From positions 1,696,001 to 1,760,000 of the forward strand of contig OZ241857.1 in the NCBI GenBank assembly GCA_965203315.1: DNA of 64,000 nt, in the 5' to 3' direction. Shown here piece after piece: positions 10,760 through 14,788 of the stretch; position 1 is the stretch's first letter; every line of letters starts with the position of its first letter. Source of the DNA: Nitrosopumilus sp. (GTDB lineage Archaea; Thermoproteota; Nitrososphaeria; Nitrososphaerales; Nitrosopumilaceae). Position numbers and translations under genes: made by a program. The notes beneath the pieces are model-generated. The model had not been told where the DNA came from. It saw only the letters and a program-made list of their open reading frames with translations, and made no database searches.

Positions 10760-11155
10760 AACGTTTTATCACTTGATGTGTAATTTAATTCGTTATTATG
10801 TATTGTGTATTATGTACTCTATTGTATGACTTGTACGGAGAGAGACTTGATCCAAAATTAGACAGATACATTTTGACCTAGAGAAAAGCGATCTGTAGAC
10901 ACTATCTGATCTGCTCTATCTTTTTGTATTGTCTGGGGCATATCAGATACTGTTGTGTCAGATACTATATCTGGCTTGTCTCTTTCATCCGACAGATTCA
11001 CTTTCTACATTTTACCGCTCATTCTATTCTGTATGATGTATGTCTGATTGTGTATCGAGTTTAGTCATTTGACTTGAGTAAACCACTTTTGTACTATACC
11101 CACAATAAACACTATGTTTTTAATAGTGAATATATTTTGAATATTGATATAATAT

Positions 11156-11890
11156 ATGCCACAGAGTAAGAAGAGTTTTAGACTCAGTCCATCAAAGTAT
11201 GTGACATATGATATGTGTCCTTTAAAGTTTCAGTATCAATATATTGACCAAGAGCCAACCGAGCCATCACCTCATTTGGAGCTAGGTAATGTAATACACA
11301 ACACTATAGAGGAATTGGAAGAACTCGAAGAGGTCACGGAACGTATCGCATTAAAATATCTAAACAAAAATCTTAAAGCGACAGATCTGATTAAAAGTAA
11401 AAAAGAGTTTAAAGACAGAGCCAAAAAAATGCTCAAAAAATATTTAGAATGGTCAAAGGAAAATACAGATAACGCTACGGTAGACGTTGAGGTCTGGTTT
11501 GATCTAAAAAGACCTACCCATATTAAAGGTAGAATAGATCGAGTAGAAGAGACTCCAAAAGGCAATATCGAGATAATCGATTACAAGACGGGAAAAACTA
11601 GCCTCAACAAAAAGACCATTCGAAAAGATATTCAGATGAATATGTATGCTATTGGTGCAAAAAAGTTGTACCGTAAAACTCCAACAGCTGCTTCTGTATT
11701 ATACCTAAAGACAGGCAGGATGGTCAGATATAATATTACCAATAAATCCCTTGAGGTATTTCGTAAGAGACTTGACAAGATGACAAAGTCTATCAACAAA
11801 TCGATCAAGAACAATGATTTTAAGGCCAAGCCAGGATATTGGTGTCGCTTTTGTGATTATGCTGATATATGTGAGTACAATCCATACTAG
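11156..11890 (+). CDS. RecB/Cas4-like PD-(D/E)XK nuclease with predicted 4Fe-4S ligands
   Basis: LSPS..CP, G..IH..IE, GRIDR, IIDYKTG, Q..MY and C-terminal CxxCxxxxxC. Confidence 0.85.
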   Translation: MPQSKKSFRLSPSKYVTYDMCPLKFQYQYIDQEPTEPSPHLELGNVIHNTIEELEELEEVTERIALKYLNKNLKATDLIKSKKEFKDRAKKMLKKYLEWSKENTDNATVDVEVWFDLKRPTHIKGRIDRVEETPKGNIEIIDYKTGKTSLNKKTIRKDIQMNMYAIGAKKLYRKTPTAASVLYLKTGRMVRYNITNKSLEVFRKRLDKMTKSINKSIKNNDFKAKPGYWCRFCDYADICEYNPY

Positions 11891-11934
11891 ACAATAATAA
11901 AAACACAACTATGCCATCGAAAATATCCATGTGA

Positions 11935-12136
11935 ATTCTTTATAAAGGTTTTAGCGATTTTCAGTCTTTGGTCCATAGTTTACACTAGGAATGTATTCCT
12001 CACGATCACAGGACTTCGGACATATATCCATTCGAGCCAGTTACGCTCAGTATCATCTTGGTCCTTTTATCAAAATCTGTCCATTTATTTTTCAGTGGCT
12101 CTCCCACAATATTCGACCGGACCGTTACGATTTTGA
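11935..12136 (-). ncRNA. Putative IS110 bridge/seek RNA
   Basis: Two stem-internal loop-hairpin units read by eye just downstream of the recombinase stop codon; loop strands match the inferred junctions. Confidence 0.65.
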
Positions 12137-13249
12137 CTATGACACAACAAACTTTCTATCCTCTGCTAACACACAATATATCACTCGAAGTAATTTGGCA
12201 GCAGCTGCAACTGTTGCCTTGCTTGTACCGCGTTTCTTTGCAAGTTTATAGTAAAATCTAGAAATGTTTGTATCTGTATGTCTGACGTGTACATGTACTG
12301 CTTCAGTTAGAATCCATCTTAGCATACGACTACCACGTTTGGTTATATGACCATGAATCACTTTATCTGCAGAGTTTCGTACTGATGGAACTAGTCCTGC
12401 ATATGCGCATAGTTTATCTGATCCATGAAATCTTTTGATATCTCCTATCTCTGCCGCAATTACAAGTGCACTGTAATTGCCTATGCCTGGAATTGTTTTC
12501 AAGAGTGCTGCATATCTTGTTTTATCTACTTTGGTCGCTATTTTGATATCATCTTCAAGAATCTCTTTGTTACAAAATTCTATTGATCTCAGATAAGACT
12601 CTATACGATAGTCTCCAAGTTGTTGTAATTTCTTGATGTATTGCTTAGAAAATGGATTACCATCTATCTTTATCCCACTCTGTAGTATTATTCCATGTAT
12701 TAGATTCTTGTATCTTGTTCTATCTCTCACATATCTCTGTCTATGTCGTACCAGTTGTTTTGATTCAATAGTATCTAGATCCGATACATAACACTCTGGA
12801 ATGTAATTGAGTCTGAGTAGGTCTGCCAGTGTCCATGCATCTACCTTGTCTGTCTTTTTCTTTGATGCAGCTATCGCTCTAGTTTGGTATGGATTCGACA
12901 ACACTACATTAAATCCCAATTCATCTACCAAGTATCTAAACAGTCCATACCAGACTGACGATGACTCTAGAACACACTTTGTCTTGTCTCTAGAAAACTG
13001 TGCAAAGAACCTTTTGATACTGTCATGATCTGTAGCAACACGTTCATTGAGCAAACGCTTACCATCCTCATCAACTGCTGCAACCTGTAGAAACTTTTTG
13101 TGAGCGTCTATTCCAACGTATATCATCTTACTTTTACTTTTTTTCTGGGTAATCTGTTTGTTTGCATTTTTAGATCGATTTACAGGTGATCGCTTGGATC
13201 GACTTGCATGCTTGGTATCATCTGAATTTGCTTTGATCGATTTCTTCAC
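12137..13249 (-). CDS. IS110-family DEDD recombinase/transposase, apparently intact
   Basis: YVGIDAHK, VLESS, KTDKVDA (DEDD), TIPGIG, AEIGD..RF, YAGLVPSVRNS, I.K.G...LRW.L. Confidence 0.95.
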   Translation of the reverse strand: MKKSIKANSDDTKHASRSKRSPVNRSKNANKQITQKKSKSKMIYVGIDAHKKFLQVAAVDEDGKRLLNERVATDHDSIKRFFAQFSRDKTKCVLESSSVWYGLFRYLVDELGFNVVLSNPYQTRAIAASKKKTDKVDAWTLADLLRLNYIPECYVSDLDTIESKQLVRHRQRYVRDRTRYKNLIHGIILQSGIKIDGNPFSKQYIKKLQQLGDYRIESYLRSIEFCNKEILEDDIKIATKVDKTRYAALLKTIPGIGNYSALVIAAEIGDIKRFHGSDKLCAYAGLVPSVRNSADKVIHGHITKRGSRMLRWILTEAVHVHVRHTDTNISRFYYKLAKKRGTSKATVAAAAKLLRVIYCVLAEDRKFVVS

Positions 13250-13257
13250 ATATGTTT

Positions 13258-13363
13258 ATTTTTGTGCCACGTGTGTGATTTGGACTATTACATTTATACG
13301 GAGTTTTAATATTTTTGTGCCACGTGTGTGATTTGGACTATTACATTTATACGGAGTTTTAAT
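13258..13363. repeat. Perfect 53-bp tandem duplication just upstream of the transposase
   Basis: Units 13258-13310 and 13311-13363 are identical; each has TATAAAT on the minus strand. Confidence 0.95.
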
Positions 13364-13769
13364 ATGTATGCAGATCTATAAATTCACAACACATTGTAAA
13401 TTTACCTCTAGACTATCAAATATTTCGTCAATAACTTTAATCAATATTCAACTAAACAAGAGATATGCATAATGGTGAGAGTGTGTTTTGGTTTATGCTA
13501 AGATGATCGTGCTAAGTATCATGCCTAGCATATCATTCGTTAAGAAATCGACCACATATGTCTCTTGGAAAAGGTAGATTTGAAACGCCACATGAAACAT
13601 TTAATCGAAAGATACCAAAAAAGGAAACGTCCACTGTAGAGTCGTCTGGAGATGAATATCGTGTCAAATGATATGGTGAACGATTTTTATTTCACACTAT
13701 TCATGTGGATAACAGAGCGCTAATAGAGTGATCAATTTAACAAAAAATTCATGTCAGAGTAATGATCTG

Positions 13770-14621
13770 TCATTTTTTAATATAATTTAATGCAAAGTTG
13801 ATCATCTCTCTTGGAATGTCTCGTTTTGCAACCTTTGCTAATCCTTTAAACTCAACTGTATTGTTTACTTCATGTACGACCAGGCCTCGCTCTTTATCTT
13901 CCATCATATCTATGCCTAATATTCCACCTCCCACAGCATCTGCTGCTTTTATTGCAATCTCTTCTATCTCTTTTGTGATCTCGCATCTTTCTGGATCTCC
14001 ACCTAACGCAACGTTTGTTTTAAAATCACCTGCAGATCTACGATACATGGCCGCTACTGCTTCATCTCCAACTGTGATGACCCTGATATCTCTTGGCGGT
14101 CTATCTATAAGCTCTTGCAGATAGTATATTCTATCGTATGGTCCATCAGTTACATCACGTATCTCGATAATTGCATCTATTGTATCTCTATCCTTGATGG
14201 GCATTACTCCTCGACCCCAACTCCCGATGACTGGTTTAATGACTACCGGATACCCCATATTCTCAATGACATCGATTGCGCCTAAACTAGAGAATGCAAA
14301 TTTTGTCGTGGGCGTTGGCACATTGTGTTTTTTTAGACACAACGTTACGAACATCTTGTTTCCACATATACTTGCTACCTCGAGTCTATTCAATACAGGC
14401 ATGTCGATAAACTCTAGACTAGCTGTAAAGTGTAATCCTCTAAAGTAACTAACACATCGCTCAATCGCTATATCTCCTAACGAGTCATTCTTGCTATCAG
14501 TACTCATCTCTGTCGTCTTGGCGTCTAGCATTTGTACATTACAACCTAGGTCTACAGCTGCATTTTGGAGCATCTTCTCCTCTGTTCTGATTCGGTCAAA
14601 GACGATACAGATCTTTGGCAT
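13770..14621 (-). CDS. lysX: LysX/ArgX ATP-grasp ligase (RimK family)
   Basis: KPVIGSWGRG, RDIRV, KTNVALGG, HEVNNTVEF. Confidence 0.92.
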   Translation of the reverse strand: MPKICIVFDRIRTEEKMLQNAAVDLGCNVQMLDAKTTEMSTDSKNDSLGDIAIERCVSYFRGLHFTASLEFIDMPVLNRLEVASICGNKMFVTLCLKKHNVPTPTTKFAFSSLGAIDVIENMGYPVVIKPVIGSWGRGVMPIKDRDTIDAIIEIRDVTDGPYDRIYYLQELIDRPPRDIRVITVGDEAVAAMYRRSAGDFKTNVALGGDPERCEITKEIEEIAIKAADAVGGGILGIDMMEDKERGLVVHEVNNTVEFKGLAKVAKRDIPREMINFALNYIKK

Positions 14622-14788
14622 TACTCTCCCCAGTCTTCACCTACGCTCTCTGCATGCTTTATCTCTGTGTTGGCACCATCTCTCTTTGTTATCTCAAAGT
14701 CGGCACCACAATCATAACAAGAGATAATTTCACCAACTGAGGCATCGTCTGGAATATTCATCGTCGCATCACATTCTGGACAGTTCAT
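14621..14788 (-). CDS. lysW: LysW amino-group carrier protein (absent from ORF track)
   Basis: Manual translation MNCPECDAT...SCYDCG...VGEDWGE* with diagnostic C-terminal EDWGE. Confidence 0.95.
   Translation of the reverse strand: MNCPECDATMNIPDDASVGEIISCYDCGADFEITKRDGANTEIKHAESVGEDWGE

Follow-up and report, generated by a model that had tools for sequence, protein, structure and literature searches.

The window analysed here, a 64,000-nucleotide stretch of a Nitrosopumilus sp. genome (contig OZ241857.1, forward-strand positions 1,696,001 to 1,760,000), very probably contains an intact-looking insertion sequence (IS) of the IS1111 type, IS110 family, which occupies 1,331 bp of the minus strand at window positions 11926–13256 and carries a two-loop bridge (seek) RNA and a TA core. 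This reading, made from sequence, is carried by the boundaries of homology to paralogous copies, by covariation in the RNA, and by RNA loop letters that follow the flanks and ends of related insertions. The open reading frame (ORF), helices, guides and ends of the window copy are all intact as read, and it is plausible that the element is intact. Coordinates below are window positions, and the features are collected in Table 1.

An IS110-family recombinase between ends fixed by paralogous copies

The encoded recombinase matched both IS110-family profiles over their full length, PF01548 (DEDD_Tnp_IS110; E = 3.9e-26, profile positions 1–151 of 155) and PF02371 (Transposase_20; E = 3.8e-24, positions 2–86 of 87), in agreement with the original prediction of an IS110-family element. 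Among solved structures, it matched ISCro4 (E = 7e-12) and IS621 (E = 3e-11). The alignment with ISCro4 contained the column pairs GIDahK/GIDvsK, vlEsss/cmEats, TDkVDA/TDaVDA and aGLvPsvrnSa/aGLtPrryeSG. The catalytic residues printed for IS621 are D11, E60, D102 and D105, in the RuvC-like part, and S241, in the C-terminal part (PMC11208158); judging from the printed motifs, the aligned D, E, D..D and S columns probably correspond to them. The nearest named protein relatives come from Nitrosopumilus and Nitrosopumilaceae metagenome-assembled genomes (MAGs; 44–56% identity), in line with the thaumarchaeal host originally proposed, and remoter ones from Archaeoglobi, Thermoplasmata, Bathyarchaeia and Nitrospirota. 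A recombinase homologue was present in 61 of 301 genomes sampled within the same class, a tally that counts one unpublished genome (G283), which entered the analysis at no other point. As is characteristic of IS1111 elements, 211 nt past the stop codon (11926–12136) are non-coding, versus 7 nt (from the GTG start) or 130 nt (from the internal ATG) upstream of the gene.

Eleven further full or nearly full copies were found in the same genome (2.47 Mb, seven contigs), at 68–75% identity, and all of them were homologous to the window solely within 11924–13258. In a MAFFT alignment of the own-genome copies that included 150-nt flanks, similarity began at flank-TA-A(A/C)CATATGTGAAG and ended at TTCACATGGA-TA-flank. 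All 12 copies end in ...CACATGGA-TA. The left junction read flank-TA-A(A/C)CATATGTG in 10 of the 12, the exceptions being L012 (TA-ACCGTATGTG) and L011, which lacks the first 28 nt of its left end. The L011 junction (C1:1216122-1217431) could have arisen from an L009-like arrangement by loss of the DNA between two TACATT hexamers.

Three sister subfamilies reside in repeated DNA, and uninterrupted paralogous sites could be used there as empty sites. For copy L002, four uninterrupted sites read GTTCACCATCAC-TA-GAATTACACAAG (...CATCAC-TA-GAATTAC...). The left half of the site occupied by copies L005–L007, CCCCCG(T/A)TAAGT-TA, was present at 38 sites, 34 of which were uninterrupted and went on to AAAGA(A/G)CC; of the remaining four, three were occupied and one was divergent. 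Copy L004 had one uninterrupted site, GTGCGTGAGACC-TA-ATATCATACC. Since these uninterrupted sites read LT-TA-RT (left target, core, right target), insertion must yield LT-TA-[element]-TA-RT, with one TA at each junction. This layout places the body of the window copy at 11926–13256 and its TA copies at 11924–11925 and 13257–13258. The AT core and the circle junction AAGATG-AT-ATCCAT of the original prediction are thus replaced by a TA core. The element contains a perfect 7-bp subterminal inverted repeat, ATGTGAA/TTCACAT, lying 5 and 3 nt inside the ends, with an imperfect extension to CAT..GTGAA.

The target repeat of L005–L007, CCCCCG(T/A)TAAGT-TA-AAAGAACC, is preceded at its 38 places by a C-run and one of several conserved contexts, and probably marks the end of another repeat family. 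In genome G186, the left junctions of seven copies (L025, L060–L065) have TA, while the right junction is …ATAGA-TG-ATTCAT… in three and …ATAGA-TT-GATTCAT… in four, a one-base polymorphism at the core.

A two-loop guide RNA directly downstream of the recombinase gene

The original prediction placed a two-loop RNA directly past the recombinase stop codon, and its helices and loops can be read there on the minus strand. The first unit is closed by P1, UCAAAAUC/GAUUUUGA (12136–12129/12077–12070), and a GUCC/GGAC helix (12122–12119/12082–12079), and ends in the hairpin GUGG-GAGAG-CCAC; the second contains the hairpin GAGC-GUAACUG-GCUC. Both loops are alike in shape: a helix, 11–13 nt, a hairpin, 12 nt, and the helix again. 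In the window copy all five helices are Watson–Crick.

A covariance model (R1) with five helices was built from six distinct own-genome versions of the RNA. It matched immediately 3' of the recombinase gene at 21 of 29 loci from other genomes. In these 21 foreign sequences, which took no part in model building, 93.3% of cells were paired, as opposed to 40–53% with slid partners, and 22 of 25 pairs showed compensatory change, values reached by none of 500 shuffles; the alignments were fitted to the model, so that the figures lean towards structure, and the relatives are related, so that pair counts are not independent. The single-sequence minimum-energy fold yielded all five helices, at a stability equal to that of shuffles (z = -0.16). 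The support for the structure is therefore covariation rather than folding energy.

The second loop had been described as closed by AGGAC/GUCCU. A closing helix does exist there, but it is P4, GGAC/GUCC (12064–12061/12021–12018): across 37 distinct sequences, GGAY with the RUCC that follows straight after the 12-nt 3' strand was 97.2% paired, with compensatory changes at three of four pairs, whereas AGGAY/RUCCU, which fits the distal GUCCU at 12014–12010 only, was 84.3% paired. A mini-hairpin GGAU/GUCC within the donor-loop 3' strand was rejected, as it showed no covariation and was equalled by 481 of 500 shuffles. An Rfam scan of 11000–14500 (E up to 10) returned just a chance-level match to STnc560 (14.8 bits versus a gathering score of 55); thus, no curated family covers the guide RNA.

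Two observations concern the surroundings of the RNA. A hairpin UAGU-GUAA-ACUA with a GNRA-type loop lies 3' of the second loop (11976–11987, minus strand), and a similar motif, (C/U)AG(C/U)G-NNA-(G/A)C(U/C)(A/G), was judged by eye to be present in many relatives. At L080 and L088, both in Nitrosopumilus MAGs, two to three guide-RNA matches (tandem, partial, inverted) fall within 1 kb and read as tail-to-tail elements or duplicated RNA modules.

The target loop follows the insertion site

In the target loop (loop 1), the 3' strand takes the form xx-[five left-flank bases]-TA-Axx. The window copy has UG-AAAAA-UA-AAU against sense …CACAAAAA-TA-AACAT…, with nine contiguous identical letters (AAAAA-TA-AA) at 13263–13255. 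The 5' strand begins with GG, goes on with the 7 nt to the right of the site in reverse complement, and closes with U-x. Its window letters UCGAAUA fit TTTTCGA (11923–11917) at 6/7, plus the core A. The guide scores of the window copy are thus 5/5 plus TA plus AA for the left flank, 6/7 for the right flank, and, through the second loop, 7/7 for the right end.

These readings bear on the guides of the original prediction. The match of the loop-1 5' strand UCGAAUAU to plus 11917–11924 at 7/8 was confirmed, as was the complementarity of the loop-2 3' strand AUGGAUAU to plus 11923–11930; the near end and one target guide had been read correctly. The right-target guide, which had been left ambiguous, is now resolved: TTTATTTTT, the reverse complement of the loop-1 3' strand AAAAAUAAA, lies at 13255–13263 and straddles the true boundary. 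It occurs three times in the window, one occurrence being the guide itself and another the 13255–13263 site.

Guide statistics come from 44 insertions, which comprise 27 guide classes and 36 distinct targets; the ends had been fixed independently of the guides. The five bases to the left matched the target-loop 3' strand at a mean of 3.53/5 in own pairs and 1.25/5 in mismatched pairs, and a match of at least 4/5 was found in 23 of 36 own pairs versus 12 of 936 mismatched ones. On the right, a fixed register fails in some elements (offsets of 1–2 nt in L002, L010 and the G135 copies), and for this reason the longest common stretch was used: 37 of 51 own pairs shared 6 nt or more, versus 30 of 1,581 mismatched pairs. 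Elements of the L003 and L005 types have a near-identical recombinase and RNA scaffold, other loop letters, and other repeated targets. The fit was poor for L022, L051 and L052 (left side), L023, L029 and L031. Read together with the flanks, the target-loop letters shift with them across relatives, which by sequence is natural reprogramming in 27 guide classes. Another register for the right-flank guide, against the intact form of the repeat at the left flank (TTCGACC versus TTCAAAC, 5/7), was rejected: it needs the conserved GG adjoining P2.

The donor loop follows the right end and a site inside the left end

The 3' strand of the donor loop (loop 2), GA-AUGGA-UA-UAU, has the same register as the target-loop 3' strand. 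Compared with the right end plus core in 44 elements, it matched at 7/7 in 33, 6/7 in nine, 5/7 in one and 3/7 in one, and it covaried with the right-end variants ATGGA-TA, ATAGA-TA, ATGGG-TA and AAGGT-AA. The last of these has an AA core, which is present in its first loop too.

The donor-loop 5' strand behaves differently from a simple complement of the left end. Compared with the reverse-complemented first 60 bases of the left end, it matched over 5 nt at most, no better than in mismatched pairs. A same-sense copy of the strand was found instead inside the left end: 7–10 identical letters, starting 21–39 nt from the left terminus, always at a multiple of three, after a conserved T(T/C)(C/T)AG. 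Same-sense identity of at least 7 nt was found for 23 of 29 own guide/left-end pairs versus 59 of 435 mismatched pairs, and was limited to the loop letters. About 11 distinct variants of the internal copy were seen (…ATGGTACT, ATAGTAAT, ATAGCAT, ATGGCAA, ATGGTATT, ACGGTAG, ATGGTTGT…). Four elements inspected only later agreed at 6–7 letters; the exceptions were L036, L069, L024 and the decayed L023. The internal site repeats the left terminus imperfectly in inverted orientation, and in direct orientation it resembles the right end (TTCAGATGGTA versus TTCACATGGATA). A scan inside the element, with G-U allowed, for a third RNA partner of the donor-loop 5' strand gave scattered hits, none position-conserved. 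In remoter relatives (Archaeoglobi, Thermoplasmata, Nitrospirota, IS4321, Haloarcula), an upstream/downstream same-sense search was swamped by background (7–11 nt in own and 6–12 nt in mismatched pairs), and in Archaeoglobi the left-end guide copy was not evident by eye.

It is quite possible, if somewhat short of an even chance, that the donor-loop 5' strand is an ordinary right-donor guide for left-end bases 1–5, and that the internal copy is kept for another reason, such as regulation. In 27 of 29 distinct elements the strand complements at least four of these five bases (all five in 11), an uncontrolled count on an almost invariant terminus. Its register is one base off that of the target-loop 5' strand, and left-end base 3 covaries with it (ACT goes with AUAG in 7/7 elements, ACC in 0/15). 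Five base pairs that leave the core unpaired would, however, be weak, and the most variable letters (ACU, AAU, CAU, UGU, AUU, CAA) fit the internal site alone.

Several roles may be considered for the internal copy. The RNA may pair with the bottom strand at the internal site; the copy may be a cis-acting DNA stand-in for the guide in single-stranded intermediates; or it may serve autoregulation of the recombinase gene. Single-strand excision in IS110 elements has been argued for in preprints (10.64898/2026.08.31.748434, 10.1101/2025.10.25.684509). We tentatively suggest, as an idea with the odds against it, that the left terminus could be read in cis (by DNA–DNA pairing, IS200/IS605-like) or in trans (by RNA), or that the RNA–protein complex throttles its own gene at the template strand just past the start codon. 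If true, and taken together with a recombinase gene starting 7 nt from one end and a complete TATA promoter in the other, this would be a mode of donor recognition undescribed for IS621 or ISEc11, and an archaeal re-invention of junction-dependent expression.

Gene start and a predicted junction promoter

The recombinase gene appears to start within the left end itself. Of 38 distinct elements, 36 have a GTG at left-end position +8, inside a conserved ATATGTG, that is in frame with the conserved (Y/F)xG(I/M)D motif; in 29 of the 38 it opens an ORF of at least 330 codons. The internal ATG is missing at its position in several lineages. The core TA and the first A of the element form an in-frame TAA immediately upstream of the GTG. 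At the opposite end, 35 of 38 distinct right ends, GC-rich ones among them, carry an 8-mer with at least 7/8 A/T, (C/T)TTA(T/A)AAA, at positions -21 to -14 counted from the last base. In the chromosome, this TATA-like box faces outward, antisense to the adjacent nuclease gene. Joining the ends would put the centre of the box about 26–27 nt upstream of the GTG, which is the usual archaeal TATA-to-start spacing. The box and the GTG near opposite ends are thus predicted to form an archaeal junction promoter, and their positions in the joined ends predict a leaderless recombinase mRNA from the circle. The predicted promoter would be an archaeal counterpart to those described at the junctions of IS621 and ISEc11.

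A tentative cycle can be proposed from these features. By analogy with IS621 and ISEc11, the element would exit as a circle joined as ...CACATGGA-TA-AACATATG..., so that about 26 nt would separate the TATA-like box from the GTG (left-end position 8) downstream of it. The circle would then be the main source of a leaderless mRNA that encodes the full 370-aa recombinase and holds the guide RNA in its 3' part. In the resulting RNA–protein complex, the first loop would pair with both strands of a target ...AAAAA-TA-T(A/T)TTCGA..., the second loop would pair with the joined ends, and strand exchange would take place at TA.

Table 1. Features of the insertion sequence and its junctions, in window coordinates.
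Feature	Position	Strand	Basis or remark
IS body, IS1111-type, IS110 family	11926..13256	-	1,331 bp; homology to 11 paralogues and uninterrupted target sites
TA core copy, right-end junction	11924..11925	.	sister-copy uninterrupted sites; 12/12 copies end ...CACATGGA-TA
TA core copy, left-end junction	13257..13258	.	own-genome copies; uninterrupted target sites
Subterminal inverted repeat, right arm TTCACAT	11929..11935	-	sequence; kept in relatives
Subterminal inverted repeat, left arm ATGTGAA	13245..13251	-	holds the GTG start; sequence; kept in relatives
Recombinase ORF	12137..13249	-	370 codons from GTG at 13249–13247; internal ATG at 13126–13124 would give 329 aa
Bridge/seek RNA core (P1, P2, target loop, P3, P4, donor loop, P5)	12010..12136	-	covariance model R1
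Target-loop 5' strand GGUCGAAUAUU	12108..12118	-	core UCGAAUA-U pairs with the sense strand flanking the right end
Target-loop 3' strand UGAAAAAUAAAU	12083..12094	-	5 nt of left flank, then TA, then A
Target half-site beside right end, sense TTTTCGA	11917..11923	-	matches target-loop 5' strand
Target half-site beside left end, sense AAAAA	13259..13263	-	within the MITE copy (miniature inverted-repeat transposable element, see text)
Donor-loop 5' strand CAAGAUGAUACU	12049..12060	-	left-end bases 1–7 complemented at 5/7; identity to internal site 9 nt
Donor-loop 3' strand GAAUGGAUAUAU	12022..12033	-	last 5 nt of right end, then TA
Left-end internal copy of donor-loop 5' strand, AGATGATAC	13215..13223	-	left-end positions 34–42, in N-terminal codons
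TATA-like box TTTATAAA, outward-facing	11939..11946	-	13 nt from right end; putative function

State of the insertion site and alternative readings

The left end of the element adjoins a truncated copy, at 13300–13521, of a repeat resembling a miniature inverted-repeat transposable element (MITE). The full repeat is about 300 bp long, has terminal inverted repeats of about 20 bp (TAGACC..ATTCATAATTC/GAATTATGAATACGGTCTA), and is present without the IS in at least seven copies elsewhere in the genome (L013–L019; 92–96% identity); it has no Rfam match. The last 53 bp of the truncated MITE form an exact tandem duplication next to the left end (13257–13309 and 13310–13362). Past the shared AAAAA-TA, intact MITE copies continue differently from the window. 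The right flank is unique, unrelated DNA that lies 33 nt from the end of the PD-(D/E)XK nuclease gene. If flanks were exchanged with the MITE, a reciprocal product may exist; a search for one found none. Similar arrangements were seen in other copies: in L009, 14 bp of flank are duplicated at the corresponding position beside the left end, and L029, in another genome, is bracketed by two identical 31-bp stretches. Such duplications beside the left end may be a by-product of this recombination.

A second repeat family, with about eight genomic places at 68–81% identity, occupies 13549–13711. The PD-(D/E)XK (Cas4-like) nuclease gene (11156–11890, plus strand) lies between argC and lysX and had no DNA-level match in 30 relatives, although lysX matches there; possibly, the lysine/arginine biosynthesis cluster has been interrupted by an insertion that comprises all of 10760–13770.

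A number of points weigh against the element as we read it, in addition to the bias of the pair counts given above. The subfamily is a single copy in the genome, and the ends of the window copy were placed through paralogues of 68–75% identity. No empty-site allele was found among the 30 relatives, whose DNA match is confined to lysX (window ~13772–14700; 66–73% identity). Contigs from four DNA runs, which may include the source sample, showed the same arrangement, one spanning the left boundary with identity to the window, and contained neither a circle junction nor an empty site. Among the sequencing runs listed, no RNA run contained the stretch. The truncated and duplicated MITE on the left and the unique DNA on the right suggest that the insertion site may have been rearranged afterwards. 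The right-flank guide bears one mismatch, and the genome has no perfect predicted target, with about nine sites at one mismatch. The donor-loop 5' strand pairs with just 4–5 left-end bases and none of the core. Finally, the serine motif GLVPSVRNSA has SA, in place of the SG or TG printed for the family, and does not have TA either.

Some of these points would also fit a dead copy, whose parts are intact but immobile and whose flank matches are the fossil of one past insertion. Its single-copy subfamily, a nearest paralogue at 75% identity, the missing perfect target, the rearranged look of the left flank and the lack of joints in the DNA contigs would all agree with such a state. We nevertheless consider it unlikely: the ORF has stayed open for 370 codons, all five helices are Watson–Crick, the guides still fit the flanks and ends (5/5, 6/7, 7/7), and the left end contains a perfect 9-nt copy of the guide. 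Decayed relatives, unlike the window copy, carry stops and frameshifts.

That the downstream structure is a 3' untranslated region or a terminator, the protein picking the site and the loop–flank matches being incidental, is very improbable. A fold no more stable than shuffles would agree with it, but loop letters that follow the flanks in 27 guide classes, on stems kept by compensatory changes, would not, nor would the like scaffolds of the L003 and L005 types with their unlike loop letters and repeated targets; experiments on ISEc11 and IS621 moreover show RNA guidance (PMC11187229; PMC11208160). The originally proposed layout, in which the element spans 11917–13684 with its far end at 13500 or 13684, has an AT core and recognises plus 13500–13507 through the loop-2 5' strand AAGAUGAU, is practically untenable: the 8-letter string (AAGATGAT) does occur there, but as one of 17 in the window against 7 expected, and at 244 bp from the element it is a chance match; none of the 11 paralogues is homologous beyond 13258, so that the comparison with other copies and empty sites puts the far end at 13256 and the core at TA; and the added span consists of the tandem duplication, the truncated MITE and part of another repeat family, all foreign to the element.

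Significance

To our knowledge, there are no routine genetic tools for ammonia-oxidising archaea, and a native, compact RNA-programmed recombinase could be the start of one. The genome and its relatives supply about 27 naturally reprogrammed guide sets, each with target sites. The family also lends itself as a clean natural data set on the IS1111 branch, which is less well understood: both loops are simple internal loops, the core is TA and the guide registers can be read directly. Published work leaves open the role of the longer IS1111 RNA; in the present family the letters of its second loop vary with the right end and with a site inside the left end. The left-end guide copy and the layout of TATA-like box and GTG provide testable predictions on how circularisation may be sensed in archaea.

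Comparison with known systems

In the archaea, 662 IS110-family recombinases have been counted in 2,835 genomes (bioRxiv 10.1101/2024.06.21.599552), and ISHvo10 has been named among archaeal elements of the family (PMC11187229). The window element shares with these the protein family and the archaeal host, and the literature passages on them treat proteins. Our literature search returned no description of a guide RNA, ends or promoter for a thaumarchaeal IS110 element, and no paper linking bridge RNA or seekRNA with Nitrosopumilus or Thaumarchaeota.

Two groups of relatives carry comparable signals. In Archaeoglobi MAGs (L095–L100 and L117; 41–43% identity), the left flank recurs downstream as …(A)TTTTTAGAT… and the right end CACATGGGAG as …GGATGGGAG…, and the inverted repeats are longer (TGGGCTTCCGCC). 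In a copy of the IS4321/IS5075 family (IS1111 group, with Tn21-type inverted repeats as target) on an Enterobacter plasmid (L127), the downstream segment ...GGAUAGAUUC... repeats the right end ...CCATAGATTC..., and a second segment, AAAACGGAAA, equals the right flank after reverse complementation. This latter comparison was made by eye on one bacterial copy, without statistics or a structure model, and it raises the possibility that the second-loop logic may hold in bacterial IS1111 members.

IS621 (Durrant et al. 2024, PMC11208160; Hiraizumi et al. 2024, PMC11208158) resembles the window element in having a DEDD and serine recombinase, two internal loops, in each of which one strand pairs with the bottom strand left of a 2-nt core and the other with the top strand right of it, and a core that is common to target and donor and duplicated on insertion. 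Unlike in IS621, the RNA lies in the right end rather than the left, the order of the loop strands is reversed, the core is TA rather than CT, and the inverted repeats are long compared with the 2–3 bp of IS621. The donor-loop 5' strand also differs in being barely complementary to the terminus and in being duplicated as DNA within the left end.

With the IS1111-group elements ISEc11, ISPa11, ISKpn4 and ISPst6 and their seekRNAs (PMC11187229), the window element shares the long non-coding region 3' of the gene, the subterminal inverted repeats, the order of guide segments, natural reprogramming among close relatives and a promoter expected at the joined ends. IS1111 elements are defined by a long non-coding right end and subterminal inverted repeats of 7–17 bp (PMC11208160). 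In IS1111 seekRNAs the top-strand complement lies 5' of the bottom-strand complement (PMC11187229), and the order in our element is the same. The differences are the archaeal host, the low recombinase identity (24% by tblastn to the IS4321-family copy), a predicted promoter whose TATA box is entirely in the right end rather than a -35/-10 hybrid, and the second loop: in ISEc11 a short one-loop RNA suffices and the role of the longer RNA was left open (Siddiquee et al. 2024, PMC11187229), whereas the present family conserves its second loop, with letters that vary with the right end and with a site inside the left end. The window element falls within the printed definitions of the IS110 family and, by its non-coding region, inverted repeats and guide order, of the IS1111 group; as far as can be read from its DNA, it would work like ISEc11 or IS621.

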